DNA of 64,000 nt from Candidatus Bathyarchaeota archaeon (GCA_005888745.1 VBBS01000027.1:55045-119044); one strand, 5' to 3'. Shown: positions 6,984-58,431, counted from the stretch's first letter. Notes: generated by a model from the sequence alone, not told the origin. Made by a program: numbers and translations.

Positions 6984-7469
6984 TTAACTGTCTTGCTTGG
7001 CTGTCTCGACCGGTAGTGGAGCGTCTTCCCCAAGCTGGAGTACTTTCTTCAGTTCTTTTTTCATGAGTGATGGGTCATGGTTGAGATTGAAGTAGTCTGC
7101 GAACGTTGTAGTCGTCCTTAGCATTCTGGTTCTTCCGATCCTCTCGTCATTAATCAGGTCCATGTCCTTCAGCTGTTTCACATGGCCGTAGGCCAGTTTA
7201 CCGCGAACCCGTACCACGTAGGACTGGGTGACAGGCTGCTTCAGAGCTATGAATGATAACGTCCGAAGGGGTCCTGGTGTTAGAAGCGGTCTGTTCGCCA
7301 GTTTTCGAACGTGCTTAGCGAATTCTGCCTTTAGCTGCATGACAAAGCGTCCGTCGGGAAGTTCCACGACTTGAATCGGACTACTGGCGGTTTTGTAACG
7401 TTCAGAAACCGCCGTTGCGATTCCGCGTATCTTGTCCTCTGATCTAGCGCCTACGACAGACCCGATCAT
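6984..7469 (-). CDS. scpB: segregation and condensation protein B
   Basis: ScpB-like winged-helix sequence. Located downstream of scpA and smc on the same strand. Confidence 0.8.
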   Translation of the reverse strand: MIGSVVGARSEDKIRGIATAVSERYKTASSPIQVVELPDGRFVMQLKAEFAKHVRKLANRPLLTPGPLRTLSFIALKQPVTQSYVVRVRGKLAYGHVKQLKDMDLINDERIGRTRMLRTTTTFADYFNLNHDPSLMKKELKKVLQLGEDAPLPVETAKQDS

Positions 7470-7554
7470 CTTCAGGTCTAGTGGTCTTCCGGATACGTAC
7501 AGTGCAGCCTCGCAGAGCTGCTGCTGTAGGTCAGCAGTTTTCTGCTGAGCTGTG

Positions 7555-8232
7555 TTAGTCGAAACTTGTGTTTCCGTCGTCTCTCAGCTCGATTTCGATA
7601 TCACCGAACTCTAAAGGCTGGGCGAGGCCCACTCTTCCTTCTACTGCCAAGAATAGCAGCATGATGAACATTCTGACCGCTTCGAGAGGGTCTCCCTTTC
7701 CAAGGAGGGTTAGGAAGGACAATTTTGTTCGCGCGGATCCAGCTTTTGCTACTAGTCTCTGGAGAAACGCTTTGATATTCTCTTCAATCTTGACGAGGAA
7801 ATCGTCGACTTGTTCAAACACCTCGGGCGTCCTGAGAACCATCTGTGCGTTTGCCGGGAGCATTCTCTCCGCCGTCAACACCTCCAGTAATCCTTTGATG
7901 ACTTCCTCAACAGATGTGGTTGTCGACTCGTAGCGTAAGGGAAAGGATAGGGGAGGGGGAACGAAGTCTGTCGGCCTCTCGAGGGGGGGCTTCGGCGGTT
8001 CCTCCATCTTGAGGATTAGTTCTGATTTCATGCGCAGAAGGATTGCTGAAGAGAGAAGGGCTGTCCCAGAAACGGAGAAGTCGATGAACCCTCGACCCCT
8101 CATCTCATGAAGAAGCTCCTCCAGTATGTTTGCGAGGTTTACGTCCCACGGTTTGACGCGGTGAAGATGGATGAGGTCGAAGAGAACGGCATATGGTGCC
8201 TTCAGCCAGTACGCCTCTTCGTGAAGCGTCAA
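7555..8232 (-). CDS. scpA: segregation and condensation protein A (kleisin)
   Basis: ScpA-like N-terminus (LIHLHRVKPWDVNLANILEELL). Its start overlaps the smc stop by 4 nt. Confidence 0.8.
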   Translation of the reverse strand: MTLHEEAYWLKAPYAVLFDLIHLHRVKPWDVNLANILEELLHEMRGRGFIDFSVSGTALLSSAILLRMKSELILKMEEPPKPPLERPTDFVPPPLSFPLRYESTTTSVEEVIKGLLEVLTAERMLPANAQMVLRTPEVFEQVDDFLVKIEENIKAFLQRLVAKAGSARTKLSFLTLLGKGDPLEAVRMFIMLLFLAVEGRVGLAQPLEFGDIEIELRDDGNTSFD

Positions 8233-15116: not shown

Positions 15117-15917
15117 TCACGGATCTTTCTGACGCGAGCGGGCTGACTTCGCGAGTTCGCGTAGGAGGTATGCGATGGCGTTGTCCAGCCTTGCGTGAGA
15201 GTTGGGGTCTACGCTGTAGACATGAAGCTGGATTAGGGTCCGGATTCCACCCTCGCGGCCGCGGGGATGGGACTTGAAGTATAGTCCTGGAAAGGCCTTC
15301 CGCGTGCGGTCTAGGGCCGGCGCGAGTGCTGACTCAATAATTCCAACCAGGCCAATGGACACTTCCTTGGGAGCTTCTGTCTTCGAGGATCTCAGCATCG
15401 GAGTAACGGACCCTTGGAAGATGGCTTTCATCTCTGAGGGAACCCCTGGAAGAGAAACAAGCCTCGTCTTGCCAACTTTGATCGTGACTCCCGGAGCAGT
15501 TCCAACGGGATTGGGAAGAGGCTTAGCGCCCTCAGGCAAGGTGGCCATCTTTCTACGAAATCGGGTTAGACCTGTAGAAGCTTCCAGCATACTGTACCGG
15601 GCCTTGACCATCGCGAAAGCTTCCGAATCCAGCACGAGCCGCTTGTTCAGAGCGAGGGCGACTCCTTTGAGAGTCATGTCATCATGGGTCGGACCAAGAC
15701 CGCCGAGAGTGATCAGAACGTCAGGTCTTCTTCGAAGAGCGCCTCCAACTCCATCCTTTAACGCCGCAAGCGAGTCGCGAAGGACAGTGATCCTCTGAAG
15801 GGTCCAACCGAAACTTGTGAGACGTCTTGCGATCCAGTGAGAATTGGTATCAAGTGTGTGTCCGATCAGTAGTTCATCGCCGACAGAGATTATCTCTGCT
15901 GTCGGAGACTTCCTCAC
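15117..15917 (-). CDS. CinA-like / MoaB-MogA molybdopterin-binding domain protein
   Basis: AEIISVGDELLIGHTLDTNSHWIARRL and LITLGGLGPTHDDMT motifs. Confidence 0.75.
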   Translation of the reverse strand: MRKSPTAEIISVGDELLIGHTLDTNSHWIARRLTSFGWTLQRITVLRDSLAALKDGVGGALRRRPDVLITLGGLGPTHDDMTLKGVALALNKRLVLDSEAFAMVKARYSMLEASTGLTRFRRKMATLPEGAKPLPNPVGTAPGVTIKVGKTRLVSLPGVPSEMKAIFQGSVTPMLRSSKTEAPKEVSIGLVGIIESALAPALDRTRKAFPGLYFKSHPRGREGGIRTLIQLHVYSVDPNSHARLDNAIAYLLRELAKSARSRQKDP

Positions 15918-15943
15918 TCAGCAAGACCCCGAAAAAGCCCTGA

Positions 15944-16570
15944 CTAGTGTCTCTCCAACGAGACGACAGCTGCCAGTGCGCCTGAAAGAGCTCGGTTCGC
16001 GTCTTTCCCAAACCCAATGATCACGAGGTCGTTCTCAGAGGGATGGAAGAGTTCTCGAATCCGAGCATCTTCACGTGGCGACAGTTCGGCAACTTTCTTG
16101 TTATCGGGCGGTATCGAGAGCTTCCCGTTAACGACCGCTATAGTTAGGGTCCCTTCCGCGCCGACCTTGATCGCTTCGTCCCTTTGTAACACCCCTGTGA
16201 TTCCGGGCTTGTACCTCTTGGACAAGTGGACTCCTACCGACACTTTGCCGGGGACCAGTTCCATCTCATCTAGTGTCCTGATCTTGCGCACGGCTATCTG
16301 CTTAAGATACCGTTGCAATGTTTCCCGTCCTTGCCTAGAAAGCTTGGCACCCGTTCCCTCGCCAACTTCAACCAAGCCCTGTTCCGCGAGCCTTTCCAAC
16401 AAGCCCCGGGTAACGCCATCATTGATTTGAAGAGCTTGAGCCAAGGCACGGCGTCCAACCGGGCCCTCAAGGTCAATGAGGACTAGGGCGCTCAGAAGCT
16501 GGACTGGAGTAAGCTGGGGAAGCGGACCCCTGGCTCCGCGACGCCACTTCTCAAGCATTTCCTCAAGCAT
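15944..16570 (-). CDS. winged-helix DNA-binding protein with C-terminal DUF4443-like domain
   Basis: N-terminal wHTH-like segment. The C-terminal part has no catalytic motifs. Confidence 0.5.
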   Translation of the reverse strand: MLEEMLEKWRRGARGPLPQLTPVQLLSALVLIDLEGPVGRRALAQALQINDGVTRGLLERLAEQGLVEVGEGTGAKLSRQGRETLQRYLKQIAVRKIRTLDEMELVPGKVSVGVHLSKRYKPGITGVLQRDEAIKVGAEGTLTIAVVNGKLSIPPDNKKVAELSPREDARIRELFHPSENDLVIIGFGKDANRALSGALAAVVSLERH

Positions 16571-31226: not shown

Positions 31227-32735
31227 GTGGAGTTGCGTGAGAATGATGTTAAAGTCCTGAGAACTCTCCGGGACGCGGGCGGAATCGCTTCAGCTGAAGA
31301 TATAATCCGGAAAGCCGGCATAGTCGACGCGGCTGTTGCCCGCGCGTCACTCACACTGTCAGAACTAGGCCTAGTCAAGGAACAGACAACAAGGACCACC
31401 GAAATATTTTGTACCGAGGAAGGACATGATTATCTGGCTAATGGACTACCCGAGCGAAGGGTCGCCACGGTAGTTCACGATGCCGGGGGAAAACTCTCGG
31501 TCAGCGAAGCGGTCCAGCAAGCGGGTCTGCCACAAGACTTTGTCTCAATAGTCACAGGCTGGATTGCCCGCAAACGCTGGGGAAAGATCGAGAAAACAAG
31601 TTCAGGCAATATTCTACTGATCTCGAAAAACCCGCCCAAAGACGAAGATGAAGAGGTTCTCGAGAGAATTGGCCATGTCAGCATTCCAATAGAAGAATTG
31701 CCGAGCAACCTGAGACAAGCAGCCGATAGACTCCTCAAGAGAAACATCCTGGCCTCGAAGGAACGAGTACAGCGGAAACTACAGATCACCCCTCAAGGGT
31801 TGGACGCGATTCCGGCCCAAGCATCTGTCGATGAGATTAGCAGTCTAACAAGCGAGATGATTCTCTCTGGAGACTGGAAGAGAGTCCACCTTCGATCGTA
31901 CAATGTTTCTTCACCTGTCCCTTCGCTCAGTCCTGGAAAGTATCATCCTTACTTGCGATTCTTGCGGAGGGTCAAACGGAAGCTTGTTGCGCTCGGGTTC
32001 AGAGAGGCTGTCGGACCCCTGGTCGAAACCGCCTTCATCAACGACGACTGCCTCTACATGCCGCAAGATCATCCAGCGAGAGAAATCCACGATCTCTACT
32101 ACCTGAAACACCCGTCCAAAGCGAGCCTGGAATCATGGAAGGAAATCGTGGAGAAGGTAGCGCAGACCCACGAGAACGGCTGGAAGACAGGGTCCACCGG
32201 ATGGGGCTACAAGTACTCGAGAGAAGAAGCCTCCAAACTAGTCCTTCGGAGCCACGGCACCGCTCTAAGTGTCCGGTCAATGATTTCCAAGGACCTTCAG
32301 ATTCCAGGCAAATACTTTGCTATCGCGAGGTGCTTCCGGCCCGAACTCCTCGACAGAACTCACTTGACAGAATTCAACCAGGCGGAAGGGATCGTTCTCG
32401 ATCCCAGCCTCAACCTACGCAATCTCCTCGGGGTCTTGGAGATGTTCGCTCGCGAGGTCGCGGGGGCCGACAGGGTCCGTTTCAAACCCGACTACTTTCC
32501 ATTTACAGAACCCAGTGTCGAGTTGCAAGCCTACAAGGAAGGATACGGATGGATGGAGTTCGGCGGCAGCGGAATATTTAGACCCGAAGTCACAGAACCC
32601 CTCGGCATCAAAGTACCCGTGATCGCGTGGGGGCTCGGAATAGACAGGCTGTTCATGATGAACCAGCAGATCCAGGATATCAGACAGCTCTTCACAACTG
32701 ACCTCGAATGGATAAGGCAACAGAAGGTCGGCTAG
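31227..32735 (+). CDS. pheS: phenylalanine--tRNA ligase alpha subunit
   Basis: Class II aaRS motifs (FRPELLDRTHLTEFNQAEG, GSGIFRPEV). GTG start. Confidence 0.9.
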   Translation: MELRENDVKVLRTLRDAGGIASAEDIIRKAGIVDAAVARASLTLSELGLVKEQTTRTTEIFCTEEGHDYLANGLPERRVATVVHDAGGKLSVSEAVQQAGLPQDFVSIVTGWIARKRWGKIEKTSSGNILLISKNPPKDEDEEVLERIGHVSIPIEELPSNLRQAADRLLKRNILASKERVQRKLQITPQGLDAIPAQASVDEISSLTSEMILSGDWKRVHLRSYNVSSPVPSLSPGKYHPYLRFLRRVKRKLVALGFREAVGPLVETAFINDDCLYMPQDHPAREIHDLYYLKHPSKASLESWKEIVEKVAQTHENGWKTGSTGWGYKYSREEASKLVLRSHGTALSVRSMISKDLQIPGKYFAIARCFRPELLDRTHLTEFNQAEGIVLDPSLNLRNLLGVLEMFAREVAGADRVRFKPDYFPFTEPSVELQAYKEGYGWMEFGGSGIFRPEVTEPLGIKVPVIAWGLGIDRLFMMNQQIQDIRQLFTTDLEWIRQQKVG

Positions 32736-32736
32736 A

Positions 32737-34422
32737 ACGCCCTCAGTCCAATTCTCTCTGGCGGATCTGGAAGATCTCCTTGGACAGAAGGTTCCCCGAG
32801 ACGAAGACGGGCTCAACCAGCTCCTCGCCTACGTCAAGGGCGACGTGGAATCCCTCGACGAACAGAATGACAGCGTCAGCATCGAGGTCAAAGACAGCAA
32901 CCATCCCGACATCTGGTCGGTAGAGGGAATCGCACGCGCTCTCCGCACTCATCTCGGTCTTACCAAGCCCAAGGCTCCAATCCTTACCGGAAAATCCGGT
33001 CTGAGAGTCACAATAGATCGTAGACTAGGTGCAGTCCGGCCTTTCATCGCAACCTCCATCGTGAGAAACGTCAAGCCAAGCGAGGACGCCCTGAAGAGCT
33101 GGATAAGCCTACAAGAAAAAATGGACCTCACGTACGGTAGAAAGAGAAAACGTGCCTCAATCGGGTTCTACCAAGCCGACCTGATCAAGTCACCTCTTCG
33201 CTACACTGTTGGCAATCCTGAAGACACAGGGTTCGTCCCCCTAGGCTCAACAGAGAAGATGTCTCTCCGAGAGATTGTAGAGAAGCATCCTAAGGGAATT
33301 GAGTATGGAGGAACAATCTCATCTTTCAAAGACTGGCCGCTCCTGGAGAACGGCGACGGCAAGATTCTCTCTCTTCCACCAATCATCAACTCCAACGATC
33401 TGGGCAAGATCGCCTCAGATACGAAGAACATCCTGGTAGAGGTCACAGGGACGAATATCGAAACCGTAGGCAATACGCTGAAGATAGTCGTAGCCGCTCT
33501 CGCCGAAAGAGGAGGCAAGATCTACAGCTGTACTCAAACCTACACGGACAAGTACTCCAAGCCGATAACTACGCCAGACCTGAAATCCAGCATCAAGGAA
33601 TTATCAGTCAACTATGCTAACAGACTTCTTGGATCCACGTTCAAACCAGCAGAGATGATACGATCCTTAGTGAGAGCCGGCCATCCTGCTCGACAGGTGA
33701 GTAAGGACATCTTGCGCGTGGAGAGCCTCTGCTACCGTATCGACATCATGCATCAAGTTGACCTCGTCGAGGATCTCGCGATCGCACTTGACATTAACAG
33801 GCTAGATCCTGAATGGCCGAGAATCTGGACTCTCGGGGGACTAGCGCCTGAAACAGATAGACACGAGACTCTTGCCGAAATCATGATCGGGCTAGGATAC
33901 CAGGAGCTTCTGACCTACAGTCTGACATCCCCTGAAGTCTTCGTTGACAAGATGGGCATAAAACGCGAAAAATACGCGGAGCTGATGAATCCTAAGATGT
34001 CAACCCATACCGCATTGAGAACCTGGCTTCTACCCAGCATTCTCAATTTGCTCAAGGACAATACTCATGTCGATTATCCTCAGAGAGTCTTCGAGATCGG
34101 ACCTTGCGTAGTTGTCAAAGAAAATGGCGAAGGTCAGACGGAAACTCGATACAAGATCGCTGCGGCGACAGTTCACACAGCAGCCGGCTTCACTGAGATT
34201 CGATCTTGCCTCGACACACTCCTCGCAAGCATCGGGGTCAAGTTCGAGGTCGTGCCCACGGTTCAACCGAGCTTTCTCGAGGGACGCACTGGGGAGGTGA
34301 TGTCAGGGCAAGAGCGACTAGGAGTAGTTGGAGAGTTGCACCCGAAGATAATCCGTGCTTGGAGTCTCAGCCTCCCCGTCGCAGCTTTCGAACTAGAGAT
34401 TCCACCAATGGAGGCTGGTTAG
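32737..34422 (+). CDS. pheT: phenylalanine--tRNA ligase beta subunit
   Basis: The PheT-like N-terminus (PSVQFSLADLEDLL...IEVKDSNHPDIW) runs in frame back to ACG 32737, 2 nt after the pheS stop. The ORF track starts at GTG 32845, which removes the conserved N-terminal domain. Confidence 0.85.
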   Translation, partial: TPSVQFSLADLEDLLGQKVPRDEDGLNQLLAYVKGDVESLDEQNDSVSIEVKDSNHPDIWSVEGIARALRTHLGLTKPKAPILTGKSGLRVTIDRRLGAVRPFIATSIVRNVKPSEDALKSWISLQEKMDLTYGRKRKRASIGFYQADLIKSPLRYTVGNPEDTGFVPLGSTEKMSLREIVEKHPKGIEYGGTISSFKDWPLLENGDGKILSLPPIINSNDLGKIASDTKNILVEVTGTNIETVGNTLKIVVAALAERGGKIYSCTQTYTDKYSKPITTPDLKSSIKELSVNYANRLLGSTFKPAEMIRSLVRAGHPARQVSKDILRVESLCYRIDIMHQVDLVEDLAIALDINRLDPEWPRIWTLGGLAPETDRHETLAEIMIGLGYQELLTYSLTSPEVFVDKMGIKREKYAELMNPKMSTHTALRTWLLPSILNLLKDNTHVDYPQRVFEIGPCVVVKENGEGQTETRYKIAAATVHTAAGFTEIRSCLDTLLASIGVKFEVVPTVQPSFLEGRTGEVMSGQERLGVVGELHPKIIRAWSLSLPVAAFELEIPPMEAG

Positions 34423-41263: not shown

Positions 41264-41956
41264 TTGCTCACCGAGTCGCAGTCAGAGATGCTTGGGATAC
41301 TGTTCGGAGATGGGTCGATGTCTGAGAATCACAACTCCGTTCAGATCGTCATAACCGGTCACAAATTCGATGACGTAGAGTACCTAATTGGCCGCGTAGG
41401 TCCGATGTTCGCGGAACTCTTTGAAATGCCCCTCAAGGTACATCTAGTGAAAGATGAAAATACGATGATCCTCTACGCTTACTCCAAACGAATTGCCCTG
41501 ACCCTTCACGAATGGGGAATGCCTTTTGGCCGAAAAAAACTGGCCTGGCTCACACCGCACGTCGCATTGGATGAAGTATCTTTCGTCAGAGGCTTATTCG
41601 ACACAGATGGCTGTGTCTATCGCAAGTATGGCCCTTATTTGCAAATCCAGTTTAAGTTCGCTTCCCTTTCGCTCCTTGAGTACGCGAGGGAGTGTCTGGT
41701 AAGACTCGGCCTGAATCCCACATCGATCAGGTGCGACGATACGAAGTTCAGGTTCTATCTCAGCAGACAAGCCGAGGTAGACCATTTCTTTAGGGTCGTA
41801 GAACCCAAGAACCCAAAGCATCTTAATCGTTTCCAAAATGCTTCTCGGAATCGGTCCTACCGCCCATACACACATCGTCCTGAAGCACTCAGAAGAATTG
41901 GAAACCAACCAAGCCTTATAGGACCAATTCTGTGGAAAACACACTCGGTGGGGTAA
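41264..41956 (+). CDS. free-standing double-motif LAGLIDADG homing endonuclease
   Basis: Motif 1 LGILFGDGSM and motif 2 VRGLFDTDGCVY. TTG start. Confidence 0.8.
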   Translation: MLTESQSEMLGILFGDGSMSENHNSVQIVITGHKFDDVEYLIGRVGPMFAELFEMPLKVHLVKDENTMILYAYSKRIALTLHEWGMPFGRKKLAWLTPHVALDEVSFVRGLFDTDGCVYRKYGPYLQIQFKFASLSLLEYARECLVRLGLNPTSIRCDDTKFRFYLSRQAEVDHFFRVVEPKNPKHLNRFQNASRNRSYRPYTHRPEALRRIGNQPSLIGPILWKTHSVG

Positions 41957-41982: not shown

Positions 41983-42163
41983 TGGGGCCGTAGTCTAGCC
42001 AGACCCACTCCGGGTCCTAGTAAGGGACGACGACGGGCTCCAGAATCTATGAAACATGCACACCGACCAATATCGAGGGATGAGGAAATTCGGGAGCGCG
42101 TGAAGATACCCGTAGACGAGGGACTCGGCGGATGTCGTGGGTTCAAATCCCACCGGCCCCACC
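41983..42163 (+). tRNA. tRNA-like gene with ~100-nt insertion (putative intron) and genomically encoded CCA
   Basis: 3' end GTGGG-TTCAAAT-CCCAC-CGGCCCC-A-CCA gives a perfect T-arm plus 3' acceptor strand. The only complementary 5' acceptor strand (GGGGCCG) lies at 41983, followed by TA and GTCT-AGCC-AGAC. A 9-bp helix forms between 42009-42017 and 42119-42127. Anticodon not resolved. Confidence 0.45.
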
Positions 42164-42619
42164 AGTGTAGGGCAAATCGTCAGGGACTGGAAAGATCAGG
42201 ATCTCCTCAGCACAGACTTTGGGTCTAACCATGGCTCTTCAATCCGCCTTCGAGTCTGTTGAGGAATGAATCAATGTACTGCCGTGCGATCCCCCAATCA
42301 AAACGGCTGAGAGAGTCCGATCCGGCCCCGTGAGGACGCGTGTCGCATTGTCATCGATTCTAAGCTAGGTTCACGTAGAATGTCTCGGTCCACGTAAGCG
42401 AGTCCATGATGATTTTCAACTCAATACTGCCCGTTGTCTTGTCTGCTTTTGTGGCGTTCCATCTAGCATTCTGAACCACGAGCAGGAGTGCGTCCCAAAC
42501 CTTCTCAAAGGCGTGGGCAAATCTACCTTCTTTTCTAAAGGCAACTTCTCACATTGGGCCTGCAACCTGGCAATAAACTCACACCCCATCGTCTCCTCAA
42601 TGCTCGGGGCAAATTGAAC

Positions 42620-43170: not shown

Positions 43171-43665
43171 TTGAGTAGGCCTTCAAAGCAGGTAAGCACT
43201 TCCAAGACCACTCTCTCCAGTCAGATGATGCCTGTGGACGCCAATCCGATGGGAAACGTGCACGGGGGCACAATTCTCAAACTTGTCGATGTCGCCGCCG
43301 GAGTCACGGCCCTGCGACATGCGAGAACTATTGTGGTCACCGCAAGCATCGACCGTATGGACTTTTACCATCCAGTCTATGTCGGCAACCTTCTCAACTT
43401 CAAGGCCTCAGTCAACTACGCTGGAACAACCTCGATGGAAGTCGGAGTAAGGATAGAAGCTGAGGACCTGAAGACTGGTAGAATAACACACACCGGCTCA
43501 TCCTACCTCACCTATGTTGCTATAGATGAGAACGGACAACCAGTCGAGATTCCCGACGTCATCCCGGAGACACTTGACGAAAAACGACGCTGGAGAGAAG
43601 GAAAAAAGCGAAGGGCCGAACGCCTCAAGATCCTACAAGATCGAAGGAGCAAGGGCAAGGCCTAG
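43171..43665 (+). CDS. acyl-CoA thioesterase (hotdog fold, YciA/PaaI-like)
   Basis: MPVDANPMGNVHGGTILKLVD hotdog signature. TTG start, with an internal ATG at 43225 also possible. Confidence 0.8.
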   Translation: MSRPSKQVSTSKTTLSSQMMPVDANPMGNVHGGTILKLVDVAAGVTALRHARTIVVTASIDRMDFYHPVYVGNLLNFKASVNYAGTTSMEVGVRIEAEDLKTGRITHTGSSYLTYVAIDENGQPVEIPDVIPETLDEKRRWREGKKRRAERLKILQDRRSKGKA

Positions 43666-43677
43666 GGTCGACAAAGA

Positions 43678-44562
43678 ACGAAAGTCGCAATTGTAGGGTT
43701 CGGCATGATGGGCCGGCAGATAGCCCAAGTATTCGCCCAAAATGGCCACGAGGTCGAGGCCACGGATGAGGATCAGCAAGCACTGAAGGCGGGGCTCAAC
43801 GAAATAGCAGACGGGCCCTACGGATTGCACGCGGCTGTTTCAAAAGGAAAACTGGCTGCAGAGCAAGCTCACAGGACTCTAGCAGCCATCAAGACAAGAC
43901 CCGAGCTAGCGGATGTTTGCAAGAACTCGACTCTTGTGATCGAGGCAGCCTTCGAGGAGCTGCAACTCAAACAGAATCTGTTTCACAGAATTGAATCTGC
44001 TGCGCCACCAACTGCGATCATAGCATCAAACACTTCAACCTTGAGCCTGGACAAGATCACCCAAAGAATCTCAAGGAAGGACAGAACGATTGGAATGCAC
44101 TTCTTTAATCCAGCCCAGCTCACAAAACTCGTCGAGATCGTCCGAGGAACGTCGACATCACCTGAAACACTAGAGAAAGCGTCCCAAATCGTCCGGGAGA
44201 TCGGTAAGACCCCTATCCTCGCCCAAGATGAGCCTGGTTTCATCGCCAACCGTCTCGGACTCACCCTCTACATGGAGGCTTCAAGACTGCTAGAGGATCG
44301 TGTCGCAAGTCTCTCTGACATCGACACGTGCATGAGACTCGGATACAACCATCCAATGGGACCCTTCGAACTAGCCGACTTCGTCGGACTTGACACCAGA
44401 CTTCGGAATCTAGAATCACTCTACAAGTCAACGAATGAAAGTAAATGGATACCACCTCAGATTCTAAGAGAGATGGTCCAACAAGGATACCTCGGCGACC
44501 CTGCTAGAAAGAAGACGAGCAAGGGCGGATACTACGAGTATCTCCGGATAAAGCGAGGATAA
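43678..44562 (+). CDS. hbd: 3-hydroxyacyl-CoA dehydrogenase
   Basis: Rossmann motif VAIVGFGMMG plus C-terminal HAD domain. The ORF-track start ATG 43705 cuts through GxGxxG. The frame is open back to the stop at 43663, and the only start-like codon there is ACG 43678. Confidence 0.85.
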   Translation, partial: TKVAIVGFGMMGRQIAQVFAQNGHEVEATDEDQQALKAGLNEIADGPYGLHAAVSKGKLAAEQAHRTLAAIKTRPELADVCKNSTLVIEAAFEELQLKQNLFHRIESAAPPTAIIASNTSTLSLDKITQRISRKDRTIGMHFFNPAQLTKLVEIVRGTSTSPETLEKASQIVREIGKTPILAQDEPGFIANRLGLTLYMEASRLLEDRVASLSDIDTCMRLGYNHPMGPFELADFVGLDTRLRNLESLYKSTNESKWIPPQILREMVQQGYLGDPARKKTSKGGYYEYLRIKRG

Positions 44563-45019
44563 GAAAATCCCAACCCTTTATACAGAACATAAGCCGTGTC
44601 AACTCCACTGGTTGTTATTTGGTGTGTTAACTTCGTTCGTCTCCAGCCGTTACCTTCGAAGTATGACTCTTCACATGTTAGGCGGTCGTCGCATGAACCT
44701 GTCACGTTGGGATGAGGGGGATGACTCCGATCAGGTGACGGGTCAGAAATGGGATAGCCGGTTGGCTGGCCACCGTAAAATCCTTGCTTGGCAATCGGCC
44801 AAGTTACCACGCTATGGGCGTGAGGGGGCGGTTGAGGTTCGACCGTTCCCTGCCAAAAAGAGACTACATGTCTCTGAGGCGCAAGGGCTCGCAGGTGAAG
44901 CAGTGAAGAGGAACCCGCCGACGACGGTAATCCTCCGAGCAGATGAGAGCAAGTCTAGTCCCCCAGCAACGGAAGACTCGACAGAACCCAGAACACAACC
45001 CACAAACCATCGATGATGA

Positions 45020-47667: not shown

Positions 47668-47985
47668 TTGAAGATCACGAAGATCATAGTCCTGTTCGGA
47701 CAACCGAAAGACCCCGAACTATTCGATGAGCAATACTGGAAAGACCATGTTCCAATAGCGAAGGCGATGCCAGGTTTGAAGAAATACACAGTTCACAAGA
47801 TCGTTGGGGCACCACGAGGAGAACCGGCATACTACCAGGTTGTCGAACTGGAATTCGAGAATATGGACAGCCTGAAGAAAGCATTGGAAAGCCCGGCCGG
47901 ACGCGAATCAGGCCGGCACGGCGTAAAGATTGCTACTGGTGGCATAACTTTCCTTTACGCGGAATCAAGAGAAGCGATGCCGTAG
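47668..47985 (+). CDS. EthD/Dabb-family small alpha-beta barrel protein
   Basis: KIIVLFGQPKDPELFDEQYWKDHVPIA N-terminal pattern of the EthD family. TTG start. Confidence 0.55.
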   Translation: MKITKIIVLFGQPKDPELFDEQYWKDHVPIAKAMPGLKKYTVHKIVGAPRGEPAYYQVVELEFENMDSLKKALESPAGRESGRHGVKIATGGITFLYAESREAMP

Positions 47986-48077
47986 AACAACAACAGTCTA
48001 GCCCGGTTCCATCTGACATATTCCTCGGAAAACGTTCTTCTAATCAGACCCGTCAGTTCTAGGACAGGAGCGGGGAA

Positions 48078-49235
48078 GTCTTAGGCCGCATCGGAATCGT
48101 TGGAGTTGGACATTCAAAGTTCGGAAAAAGGAGCGACGCCTCCCTCCGAGAGCTAGCATTCGAAGCGTACAGTTCCGCCCTAGATGACGCCGACATCGAC
48201 TCTTCAAAAATAGACGGTTCAATAGTTTGCTCCGCCACTCACTACGACAAGCAACGATCGCCTGCAGGTGTTGTTGCGGAATATCTCGGACTCAATCCCC
48301 AACCAACATTCAACGTTGAGGCAGCCTGCGCCTCCAGCGCTGTTGGCCTTCGGACCGCGTGGGCGCTTGTCTCATCAAAACTTCATGATGTGGTGGCCGT
48401 TGTGGGGGTGCAGAAGATGACCGAACTCTCCTCGGAGGAGATCCAGGAGCTCATGGGCAGAGCAGGGGACGTCATGTGGGAGTCTCCCTTCGGAACAACA
48501 ATGCCCGCATACTACGCCTCCTATGCTAACGCCCACATGGCCAAGTACGGAACTACAGAGGAACAAATGGCGCTCGTGTCGGTGAAGAACCGAAAATACG
48601 GATCCAAGAATCCTAACGCCATGTTTCAAAAACCCATCCAATTGGAAGAGGTCCTAAAATCGCGAATGGTATCTTATCCTCTAAAACTATACGATTGCTG
48701 CGCCAATGCTGACGGGGCGGCATGTCTGCTCATTACTAGTGCCGAAAAAGCAAAGAAAATTTCTGATAGACCCGTATGGATCTCCGGGCTTGGCCTGGCT
48801 TCGAGTCCCATGTCGCTTGCTGGAAGAAAAGGTCCATTGACGAGTTTCGATGCCACAAGAAATGCGGCGAGAACGGCATACGAAATGGCCAATATCAAAC
48901 CACACGACGTACATGTGGCGGAGGTTCATGACTCTTTCTCGGTAACAGAAATCATCAATTATGAAGACCTCGGATTCGCACGACCTGGAAGGGGTGCTAA
49001 GCTTCTGGAAAACCAAGGCACGGAGCTCGGCGGGAGAATCCCCGTCAACATCGACGGAGGCTTGATTTCCAAAGGCCATCCAGTCGGAGCCACAGGCGCG
49101 TCCCAGATCTTCGCATTGGTCAAACAACTACGGGGGGAAGCGGGTAGCGTTCAGGTCGACGGCGCTAAGATTGGTCTCGCACAGAACATAGGGGGAATAG
49201 GAATGTACTGCTCCGTTACGATCTTGCGCTCATGA
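48078..49235 (+). CDS. thiolase (SCP-x-type acetyl-CoA C-acyltransferase)
   Basis: Thiolase N-terminal domain (GRIGIVGVGHSKFG...AACASSAVGL active Cys) is in frame with the called ORF 48390..49235. The frame opens at 48063, and there is no ATG, GTG or TTG before 48390. Start position uncertain. Confidence 0.75.
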   Translation, partial: VLGRIGIVGVGHSKFGKRSDASLRELAFEAYSSALDDADIDSSKIDGSIVCSATHYDKQRSPAGVVAEYLGLNPQPTFNVEAACASSAVGLRTAWALVSSKLHDVVAVVGVQKMTELSSEEIQELMGRAGDVMWESPFGTTMPAYYASYANAHMAKYGTTEEQMALVSVKNRKYGSKNPNAMFQKPIQLEEVLKSRMVSYPLKLYDCCANADGAACLLITSAEKAKKISDRPVWISGLGLASSPMSLAGRKGPLTSFDATRNAARTAYEMANIKPHDVHVAEVHDSFSVTEIINYEDLGFARPGRGAKLLENQGTELGGRIPVNIDGGLISKGHPVGATGASQIFALVKQLRGEAGSVQVDGAKIGLAQNIGGIGMYCSVTILRS

Positions 49236-49281
49236 GTACATTCTCCAAGCTCTATGACGAAAAGCGAGGGCGAATCTAGGA

Positions 49282-50208
49282 TTGCAGGTGGACATTCAAG
49301 AGTTGACCCCCATTCAAAGCTTCGGCAGAAGAATTCGAGCCTATGATAAAGCCACACGCCTCGCAAAGGAAGGTCGCCCTGTCACTGAAATCTCGAAAGA
49401 GACGGGAACGCCTGACGCTACCATCAGGGGATGGCTCGTAAACGGTCGAAAACCTTGGACCCGCTGCGAACTCTTCAAACCAACGTACTCTGATCAATTA
49501 ACATATGTTATCGGTGTTTACATGGGAGACGGCTCGATTTCCCGATGGAGAAATCGTTTTTTACTGCGATTAGATGTCAAAGACAAAGAATTCGCCGATA
49601 AGTTTTCTTCAACATGCGCACATGTTCTGGGTAGGAAACCATATTCTGTGAGGCATGTCAGGGATAGGGACACATACGAGACTATCATTTCAAACGCGTC
49701 TTTCTGCAAGTTCCTCAACCGAGGCCTCACCCACCTGGATCGGTATGTACGGGAGCATCCCTCTGGCTTTGTTAGAGGTTTAGCTGATAGCGATGAGTGC
49801 CCCACTGTGACAACAACAAAAAAGCGGGGCAAACCCTGGTTCTTCGTCCAAGTTGTAGTAGCAACATCCAAGAGCATACGCTTACTGAGCTATACTCGGA
49901 CGATCCTGAGGGAATGCCTCGGACTCAAAGCGACGCTAGTGTACAAAGGCAAGCCAAGACCCAGTGTGTTCAAGAACAAGTTGCTCCGTTCAAGAAAGAG
50001 GGTCTTTGACCTTAGGATATCGCGCTTTGGTGACGTGAAACGATTCTCCCGGGTTGTTGGTTTCGAATTGGCTCGGAAACAAGAGAAGCTTGCCGCTGCT
50101 ATCTTCGTCCGTGAAGGATTTGGTTCTGGTCAGGATGCGGTGAAAGAGTGGACCCGTCGCTGGGAGCATGGCACCACTGAGTGGATTCTCAAGAAAGGAG
50201 TGGACTAG
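49282..50208 (+). CDS. free-standing LAGLIDADG homing endonuclease with N-terminal HTH
   Basis: Motif 1 YVIGVYMGDGSI and motif 2 FVRGLADSDECP. TTG start. Lies between the thiolase and DUF35 genes. Confidence 0.8.
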   Translation: MQVDIQELTPIQSFGRRIRAYDKATRLAKEGRPVTEISKETGTPDATIRGWLVNGRKPWTRCELFKPTYSDQLTYVIGVYMGDGSISRWRNRFLLRLDVKDKEFADKFSSTCAHVLGRKPYSVRHVRDRDTYETIISNASFCKFLNRGLTHLDRYVREHPSGFVRGLADSDECPTVTTTKKRGKPWFFVQVVVATSKSIRLLSYTRTILRECLGLKATLVYKGKPRPSVFKNKLLRSRKRVFDLRISRFGDVKRFSRVVGFELARKQEKLAAAIFVREGFGSGQDAVKEWTRRWEHGTTEWILKKGVD

Positions 50209-57025: not shown

Positions 57026-58431
57026 ATGCTGATCGGGGGAGAGTGGAAGGACAGCGCAAATGGCGCTGTTTCATCAGTTCTTGATCCTTCAAACAACGTA
57101 CAAGACAGGACGCGAAAGCTGCAGTCGTGAGTGCGAAGATCGCGCTGGAGTCGGCCGGCTGGGTCGACATTGATCCCAGCAAGAGAGGGCGTCTCCTAAC
57201 TAAGCTCACAACTCTGGTCAGGGAGAATTCAGAGCAGCTGGCAAAGCTTGAAACCATGAGTGAGGGGAAGACTCTCCGAGAGTCTAAGGGTGATGTTGCC
57301 TGGGCGGCCAGGGCGTTCGAGTACTGGGCAGGACTGGCGGACAAGGTTGAAGGAGAAACCATACCTGTTCCGCCGAGACGTCTGAACTACACTCTTCGTG
57401 AGCCGCTAGGCGTAACGGTCCATATTGTTCCTTGGAATTATCCGATCGCGCTTGCTGCTAGAAGTTTGGCACCGGCAATTGCAGCAGGGAATACTGTTGT
57501 CGTGAAACCGTCTGAGATTACTCCTCTTACAGCGATTATGCTGGGAGATCTAGCGCTTAAGGCCGGCATCCCCAAAGGTGTTATCAACGTTGTAACTGGA
57601 TCAGGTGCTGAAGTAGGCGAAGCACTTGTGTCGGACCCGCGAGTGGACGGGATAGTTTTCACAGGGTCCGCTGAGACAGGAACGCAGGTGATGGAGTCAG
57701 CCGCGAAAAATGTTACAAGGGTACTTCTGGAGTTAGGCGGTAAGAACCCGCATATTGTCTTCCCTGACGCCGACTTGGCGAAGGCCGCTAAGAGCGTGAA
57801 GGAAGGCATTTTCACCAATGCTGGACAAATGTGCTGGGCCGGATCTAGGGCATTCATTCACGAGAGCATATACGATGATTTCGTAAAGGACCTCGTCGCC
57901 AAGACCCGAGCGATAAAGGTCGGGCCTGGAAGAGATGATACCAGCGAGATGGGACCCTTAGCCTCAAAGGCTCGGCAAGACGTGGTTCTCGGGTTTGTCA
58001 AGGACGGCCTCGAAGAAGGGGCAAGTCTTCTCTGCGGGGGGAAGAAACCATCTGACCCAGGACTGCAGAAGGGAAATTTCGTCGAGCCCACCATTTTCGA
58101 GAACGTCAACGGGAAGATGAAAATCGGGTGCGACGAGATTTTCGGACCTGTTCTGGGCCTTACCCAGTTCAAGACTCTCGACGAGGTTGTTGCTATGGCC
58201 AATGAGACAGATTATGGACTATACGGGGGAGTCTGGACGAGCAATTTGAAAGTCGCTCATGAACTCGCTGTTCGTCTCCAGGTCGGTGGACTAGCCGTGA
58301 ACGAGTATTTGGTGACCTTTCCGCAGACCCCGTTCGGCGGCTACAAGGACAGCGGAATAGGACATGAAAACGGCATACGCTCGTTAGAATTCTACACACG
58401 AACCAAGAATGTCTCGATAAACCTTTCCTAG
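57026..58431 (+). CDS. aldehyde dehydrogenase, interrupted by a -1 frame change near 57085-57127
   Basis: Main body 57127..58431 (catalytic Cys region AGQMCWAGSR, ELGGKNP). The conserved N-terminus MLIGGEWKDSANGAVSSVLDPSNN is encoded from ATG 57026 in the frame offset by +1 and stops at 57130. The body frame opens at 57085. Confidence 0.75.

Follow-up and report, generated by a model that had tools for sequence, protein, structure and literature searches.

ACG as the probable start codon of a 3-hydroxyacyl-CoA dehydrogenase gene in a clade of soil Bathyarchaeia

The gene hbd, encoding a 3-hydroxyacyl/3-hydroxybutyryl-CoA dehydrogenase, lies in a 64,000-nucleotide (nt) stretch of DNA from an uncultured Candidatus Bathyarchaeota archaeon (GCA_005888745.1 VBBS01000027.1:55045-119044), hereafter the window, and probably starts at an ACG triplet (43678–43680) used as a functional start codon through near-cognate initiation. 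Comparison with relatives makes it highly probable that this ACG marks the N terminus of the translated Hbd protein; confidence is lower in any specific mechanism, be it wobble pairing by the initiator tRNA, coupling to upstream translation, or use of a Shine–Dalgarno (SD) element. The ACG appears to have arisen within a clade of soil Bathyarchaeia and to have been retained there through extensive diversification. Nor is it isolated, because pheT and scpB carry ACG where their orthologues have ATG, and the thiolase gene has CTG or TTA at the corresponding position.

The hbd locus and the N terminus of its product

The locus comprises the following features:

43171–43665, plus strand: gene for a 4HBT-family acyl-CoA thioesterase, the upstream cistron, with a TTG start and a TAG stop at 43663–43665 (Pfam PF03061, E 1.3e-19; gene order kept in relatives)
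43663–43677, plus strand: stop codon and 12-nt spacer, TAG-GGTCGACAAAGA, with a possible SD-like AGGT..GATC; non-coding, its length varying between loci
43678–43680, plus strand: ACG, the putative hbd start codon (positional homology with ATG/GTG/TTG; invariance of the triplet)
43678–44562, plus strand: full hbd coding sequence (CDS), 294 codons plus TAA
43696–43713, plus strand: GxGxxG dinucleotide-binding motif, GGG TTC GGC ATG ATG GGC = GFGMMG, kept in all relatives

Following the thioesterase stop, the sequence reads GGT CGA CAA AGA ACG (43678–43680) AAA GTC GCA ATT GTA GGG TTC GGC ATG (43705–43707) ATG GGC. The annotated start, ATG 43705, is residue four of GFGMMG; an earlier note on this DNA, made from the sequence alone, had placed this ATG inside the GxGxxG motif, and direct reading of the sequence bears it out. 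The public record of the product (P0001, 285 amino acids (aa), NCBI name Candidatus Bathyarchaeota archaeon) begins at this same codon. In the window sequence, no ATG, GTG, or TTG occurs in the 12 codons between the TAG at 43663–43665 and ATG 43705.

In every respect other than its start codon, the protein is ordinary. The Pfam profile 3HCDH_N (E 8.1e-60) aligns over its positions 1–179 to residues 6–188 of the translation from 43666, with profile position 1 pairing with the Lys codon at 43681, one codon past the ACG, and the C-terminal helical dimerisation domain is recognised by Pfam 3HCDH (E 2.5e-25). A protein search returned hundreds of homologues. Hbd chains in the PDB match the product at E 1e-58 to 1e-64; structures 9fbd, 4kug, and 6aa8 align over the full length, and residue 2 of the ACG-started translation aligns to residues 2–5 of the solved chains. 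Alignment to known Hbd N termini, which the earlier note had proposed as a check, thus puts the N terminus at ACG/Lys with both Pfam and the PDB. The translation also contains the motifs GMHFFNP, KLVEIVRG, and GFIANR, which correspond to the catalytic His, Glu, and Asn, the residues being assigned by homology only. The two-domain architecture, GxGxxG, and HFFNP/VEIV/GFIANR are those of the Hbd/HAD family at large, and the product belongs to the 3HCDH family, with a beta1–GxGxxG Rossmann domain whose predicted completeness requires a start ahead of ATG 43705. The gene belongs to a cluster that includes the thioesterase, two enoyl-CoA hydratases, a thiolase, and a DUF35 protein.

A 457-nt insertion (44563–45019) separates hbd from the first enoyl-CoA hydratase gene; most relatives lack it and have a spacer of ~55 nt there. 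Copies of 86% identity occur at a different site in two related loci (L044 and L046), with fragments in two others (L038 and L054). The insertion may be a small non-autonomous mobile element, since its flanks suggest a target-site duplication of ~13 bp.

Conservation of the ACG triplet across relatives

DNA was obtained for 28 species-representative and 80 metagenome loci, and 96 of these were aligned with the G.G.MG motif as anchor. Six codons ahead of the first Gly, ATG is found in 48, ACG in 45, GTG in two, and TTG in one; ACA, ACC, ACT, or any other codon is absent from this position in the 96 aligned loci. Just over half (51 of 96) thus have ATG, GTG, or TTG precisely where the window has ACG, and the earlier proposal that ACG stands in for ATG is upheld. 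The 45 ACG loci represent 40 distinct CDS. No canonical start occurs between the in-frame upstream stop and the ACG in 42 of the 45, and in two of the loci (L055 and L058) an in-frame TAA stands just two codons upstream of the ACG. A sequencing or assembly error at 43679 was ruled out, as 45 loci have the ACG, across many samples, many assemblers, and dozens of independent assemblies; one independent contig (L029) is 100% identical to the window and also has ACG.

Gene calls among the relatives follow the same pattern. The closest (83%–89% identity in the protein search) are mostly called at 283–285 aa and begin MMGRQ or MGRQ; relatives at ~80% identity are called at 293 aa and begin MKVAIIGFG. 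Among the best 120 protein clusters at 90% identity, 89 are called from inside GxGxxG.

ACG-clade hbd sequences share 78%–88% nucleotide identity with the window and are heavily substituted at four-fold sites. Over 36 distinct ACG-clade CDS, the mean pairwise difference at such sites is 0.39, with a maximum of 0.66; the third base is invariant in none of 56 conserved four-fold codons and in none of six conserved Thr codons, and only nine of 289 codons are fully invariant, five of them ATG or TGG. On a neighbour-joining (NJ) tree of 59 distinct ingroup sequences, parsimony requires 0, 1, and 0 changes at the three start-codon positions, compared with 1–17 (median 7) at 48 four-fold sites. Across 34 local haplotypes of the clade the ACG is invariant, while the third positions of codons 2–9 all vary (8/8). 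Both the Gly and the Phe codons in this stretch vary at third positions only, and most of the remaining changes exchange K for R or interchange V, I, and L. As the Gly, Phe, and Ala codons after the ACG change synonymously, codons 2–9 are probably translated. The eight codons from the ACG to ATG 43705 therefore evolve as coding sequence in the ACG clade, in agreement with the earlier argument for placing the start ahead of the Rossmann motif.

Translation from ATG 43705 would match both the gene callers and the NCBI annotation; the protein would then be truncated and probably inactive, and hbd would be a decaying pseudogene in the clade. One gene of the window, for an aldehyde dehydrogenase (ALDH), is indeed frameshifted. 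This account is nevertheless very unlikely, given that the hbd open reading frame (ORF) is intact at 293–294 codons in every complete ACG-clade sequence except L009, which has an early stop, that the translated product retains the catalytic motifs, and that substitutions in the eight codons ahead of the ATG are of the coding type. A Rossmann protein without beta1 and two of the three GxGxxG glycines should not bind NAD.

The earlier note had also described ACG as the only possible start. This holds insofar as no ATG, GTG, or TTG is available and only the ACG is conserved, but ATT 43690 is also a near-cognate codon. Initiation at this ATT, or at another non-canonical codon within 43681–43704, would give a shorter N terminus and leave the ACG conserved for some other reason. 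In Escherichia coli, near-cognate initiation is stronger at ATT, ATC, and ATA, at 1%–2% of AUG (10.1101/063800), and ATT is common at the 43690 position in the clade. The codon is, however, GTT in four of the 34 local haplotypes and ATC in one, and all alternative codons of the interval vary, AAA, GTC, and GTA included. A start at ATT would furthermore cut away part of strand beta1, and it would leave unexplained both the coincidence of the ACG with the ATG of orthologues and the same substitution at pheT and scpB. Such a start is thus considered improbable, and initiation at the ACG remains the favoured reading.

The ACG sequences formed a clade in none of 100 NJ bootstraps and the 18 ATG sequences closest to them in 80; taken together, the two sets grouped in 99. 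The simplest reading is a single ATG-to-ACG change followed by one reversion to ATG, although an NJ tree built on saturated sites cannot settle the matter. One transition is all that a return to ATG would take, yet the C has been kept in ~40 diverged lineages; this suggests that the ACG is maintained, not merely tolerated.

Upstream of the ACG, the sequence behaves as non-coding: its frame relative to the thioesterase gene varies between loci, in contrast to the coding-type variation of the codons downstream. The clade consensus after the thioesterase stop is TAG-GTCGATCAAGA, with most positions well conserved. Of 43 ACG-clade loci, 29 have 11 nt and 14 have 12 nt between this stop and the ACG, compared with 9–14 nt in the ATG clade; with a length that varies in this way, the spacer is not translated. 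In the window the thioesterase ORF and hbd happen to share a frame, which the earlier note does not mention, and are separated only by the TAG, and readthrough of this codon by pyrrolysine or suppression, producing a thioesterase–Hbd fusion, was therefore worth testing as a rival. As a conserved mechanism it was rejected, since just 14 of the 43 loci keep the thioesterase ORF in frame with hbd, and two of these have TAA; the differing spacer lengths mark the spacer as non-coding, and TAG closes 32 of the window's 80 long stop-to-stop ORFs, as expected of a normal stop and contrary to general recoding. Readthrough is therefore extremely improbable, and the shared frame is, on this comparison, coincidental, because the 11-nt gap of 29 loci sets the two genes in different frames.

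The spacer consensus TAGGTCGATCAAGA resembles the archaeal SD sequence AGGTGATC with a one-base bulge. With an assumed anti-SD, the median predicted pairing is −10.2 kcal/mol in the ACG clade versus −5.0 kcal/mol over all ATG loci, and −8.3 to −8.9 kcal/mol in the immediate ATG sister group. With the window itself at background (−5.8 kcal/mol), a stronger SD that offsets the weak codon is only suggested. In distant hbd orthologues (62%–65% identity) the gene overlaps its upstream neighbour through an ATGA stop/start, and the operon may thus have been translationally coupled in origin. A conserved RNA structure near the hbd start was not supported (z-score −1.37; RNAalifold covariation term −0.8 kcal/mol, with a compensatory change in one of 28 pairs), and Rfam gave no match over the start region.

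Probable non-canonical starts elsewhere in the window

Thirty-one ORFs, including hbd, were translated from their upstream stops and their Pfam boundaries compared with the first canonical start; ten were re-screened with NCBIfam. Across these 31 extended ORFs of the 64-kb window, Pfam and NCBIfam pointed to no missing starts beyond those of hbd, pheT, scpB, and the thiolase gene, all four of which are internal cistrons. When 17 syntenic genes were compared with relatives, only hbd and the thiolase gene had a non-canonical start, with pheT a third. The distances between stop and start differ: 11–12 nt for hbd, 1 nt for pheT, an overlap with scpA for scpB, and ~95 nt for the thiolase gene. The start-codon positions are:

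32737–32739, plus strand: ACG at the start-codon position of pheT (phenylalanyl-tRNA synthetase (PheRS) beta, 32737–34422), from the NCBIfam pheT_arch profile and relatives' DNA
7575–7577, minus strand: ACG at the start-codon position of scpB (6984–7577), from relatives' DNA and protein N termini
48081–48083, plus strand: TTA at the start-codon position of the thiolase gene (ORF 48063–49235), from ATG in the sister clade and CTG in relatives

The ACG of pheT lies 1 nt past the pheS stop (TAG, 32733–32735), and position 2 of the pheT_arch profile pairs with the residue that follows it. PheT of relatives begins MPSVQFSL, and archaeal PheT in general MPTI. The pheS/pheT junction reads TAG GCCA ATG CCA TCA GTC CAA in one relative (L129), TAG A ACG CCN TCA GTC in the window and three others (L109, L115, and L118), and TAA AG ACG CCA AGT GTC in a distant one (L130, 64% identity). 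The first canonical in-frame start is GTG 32845, 36 codons downstream, and gene callers begin pheT 14–36 codons late or run it into pheS. The predicted N-terminal peptide from the ACG is (M/T)PSVQFSLADLEDLLGQK, or PSVQ... after removal of Met. As pheT is essential, its ACG must support useful initiation.

ScpB of relatives begins MEAQVSTNT. At the start of its gene, one relative (L120) has ACG ATG GAA, the window ACG ACG GAA (7580–7572), and another relative (L119) ACG AGG GAA; ACG ACG was found in eight independent contigs of the window's population. Pfam SMC_ScpB begins 16 residues ahead of the first ATG. The scpB start lies ~20 nt upstream of the scpA stop (TAA, 7555–7557), and the two genes overlap at the 3′ end of scpA.

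For the thiolase gene, the start position holds ATG in the sister clade, CTG in four ACG-clade lineages, and TTA in the window. Read from stop to stop, the ORF matches Thiolase_N from residue 12 onward, and no canonical start occurs before codon 110 (GTG 48390), by which point the catalytic-Cys motif EAACASS has been passed. Within 48061–48092, a strong SD-like AGGACAGGAGCG precedes the TTA, with the SD-like AGGACAGGAGCGGGG at 48061–48075; the upstream TCTAGGACAGGAGCG is kept at the nucleotide level while its distance to the CTG/TTA differs by one base, which indicates that it is non-coding and SD-like. The TTA is only a candidate for the true start, and the nearby ATC 48090 is another. Between the thiolase gene and its DUF35 partner gene sits a free-standing LAGLIDADG-type ORF (49258–50208, plus strand), an insertion absent from three related loci (L109, L112, and L117). 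A second such ORF (41264–41956, plus strand), 26% identical to the first, has left remnants in relatives.

Several other genes of the window were considered as candidates for a missing start and set aside. ALDH (ORF 57085–58431, plus strand), flagged by Pfam, was rejected because it has a normal ATG (MLIGGEWKDS...) followed by a frameshift: its translation continues in another frame after ~57085, within the region ~57027–57130. A short stretch between the NP and DAKAAV motifs is deleted, and the break probably reflects a frameshift, a pseudogene, or faulty assembly. MTHFR has GTG at the orthologous start, and its truncated call is a choice of the gene caller. In an EthD-like gene, ATC replaces the orthologous ATG (within 47668–47676, plus strand), yet an in-frame TTG lies two codons upstream. 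In a relative, L115, three genes (450–1811, 15309–15539, and 15568–16287) are called far shorter than their orthologues, as a PheRS beta of 453 aa, a DUF35 protein of 76 aa, and an NAD synthase of 239 aa; these could reflect further start problems, frameshifts, or assembly errors.

Canonical alternatives to ATG are also abundant. Among conserved start positions between 32.7 and 55.4 kb, TTG is found at ECH1, ECH2, DUF35, 4HBT, and CarbPepReg, and GTG at M24, a 334-aa hypothetical gene, and the KaiC-like gene. Such frequent use of TTG and GTG at conserved starts suggests that selection for ATG is generally weak in the lineage, and start-codon choice for internal cistrons appears to be relaxed.

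The nature of these substitutions bears on a further alternative, namely C-to-U editing of the mRNA before translation, which would turn ACG into AUG and the thiolase CUG into UUG. All three conserved cases are ACG and the clade-wide thiolase variant is CTG, so that each is one C-to-U change from AUG or UUG; ACG is also a poor start in bacteria. Plant-organelle C-to-U editing likewise acts on genomic ACG at the initiator position of conserved genes. The AGG of scpB in L119 and the TTA of the window thiolase gene, however, do not fit that model, as editing cannot repair them. Organellar editing requires PPR/DYW-type factors; no editing of archaeal mRNA was found in the literature searched, and we know of none. 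Editing is accordingly judged unlikely; if it did occur, this would be the first example of an mRNA editing system among Archaea, creating start codons as in plant organelles.

Probable initiation at ACG and its possible biological meaning

Direct initiation at ACG would proceed as follows. Upstream translation would deliver ribosomes to hbd, an internal cistron 11–12 nt past the thioesterase stop, and the conserved SD-like AGGT..GATC element of the spacer may assist initiation. The initiator Met-tRNA most likely reads the ACG as a near-cognate of AUG, mispaired at the second base, and the product would be (M)KVAIVGFGMMGR..., with Met as the presumed first residue and a complete beta1–GxGxxG Rossmann element. 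The ACG is perhaps maintained to set a low or coupled level of expression. Ribosome profiling in Haloferax volcanii placed ~30% of putative alternative initiation sites at near-cognate codons (PMC7261190), and in yeast ACG is among the stronger non-AUG codons (PMC4705826). An ACG-started protein in E. coli carried mostly Met, with some Thr, at its N terminus (10.1101/063800).

Several observations weigh against this interpretation. In E. coli, ACG falls in a class with 0.1%–1% of the activity of AUG (bioRxiv 10.1101/063800), and archaeal aIF1 discriminates against AUU in vitro (PMC4705826). Termination–reinitiation in H. volcanii and E. coli drops steeply with distance and is almost abolished at ~20 nt (PMC10666635); because reinitiation falls in this way, the 11–12-nt spacer of hbd may already be weak for coupling. 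The window's own spacer has a predicted SD pairing, with an assumed anti-SD, of −5.8 kcal/mol, which is at background level. Finally, the 12-nt spacer upstream of the ACG is itself fairly conserved, and for this reason local conservation is a weaker argument for the ACG than positional homology.

The tRNA and Rfam scans of the window returned no initiator tRNA. The window does contain a tRNA-like gene of 181 nt (41984–42164, plus strand; GGGGCCGTAGTC ... GGGTTCAAATCCCACCGGCCCCACCA), which was missed by ARAGORN and gave only a sub-threshold Rfam match to tmRNA (36.8 bits). One or two introns probably interrupt it, and its anticodon may be CCA (Trp); with a G1–C72 acceptor stem, it would not be an archaeal initiator tRNA.

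Known systems resemble the hbd start in part. Among them are the near-cognate starts of eukaryotes and their viruses (ACG and CUG, including the yeast CYC7 series), in which ACG is likewise read through a second-position mismatch. Adeno-associated virus VP2 and Sendai C′ are viral examples with ACG. Machinery of the eIF1/eIF1A/eIF2 type, of which archaea use homologues, accepts ACG and CUG more readily than most other near-cognates. Unlike the eukaryotic cases, the mRNA here is prokaryotic, polycistronic, and of SD type, without cap scanning, and ACG is fixed in the clade as the sole start of housekeeping and metabolic enzymes and does not serve an isoform or an upstream ORF. Bacterial non-canonical starts, such as the AUU of infC and pcnB, offer the parallel of a rare codon kept in a specific gene, plausibly to set expression, and missed by gene callers; they are mostly AUU, AUC, AUA, or CUG, whereas here ACG occurs in at least three genes within 64 kb. 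Termination–reinitiation coupling (Huber et al. 2019, 2023) similarly concerns internal cistrons, and the 1-nt gap of pheT and the ATGA overlap of distant hbd orthologues are comparable to it; the published cases, however, use canonical restart codons, and the spacers of hbd (11–12 nt) and the thiolase gene (~95 nt) set these genes apart.

The literature searched gave no account of an archaeal gene that natively starts with ACG. What is new here, non-canonical starts as such being known, is a probable ACG start in an archaeon that is kept across a diversified clade and recurs in at least three genes of a 64-kb stretch, including an essential one. A plausible but tentative extension is that the lineage has a heritably relaxed, eukaryote-like start selectivity, through an altered aIF1, initiator tRNA, or rRNA, with ACG as a fourth regular start for internal cistrons.

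If ACG initiation is confirmed, the start-codon set of an archaeal lineage would be broader than the AUG, GUG, and UUG assumed by every gene caller. Many proteins of abundant soil archaea would then be N-terminally truncated in the databases—89 of the 120 closest Hbd clusters miss part of the NAD-binding motif—with distortion of domain annotation, structure prediction, and metabolic reconstruction. A preference for ACG and CUG would be more eukaryotic-like than bacterial-like, and would bear on how AUG stringency evolved with eIF1/eIF2-type machinery. A weak start held long-term by selection in core genes, including the essential pheT, would also provide a natural system in which to study the tuning of internal-cistron expression.

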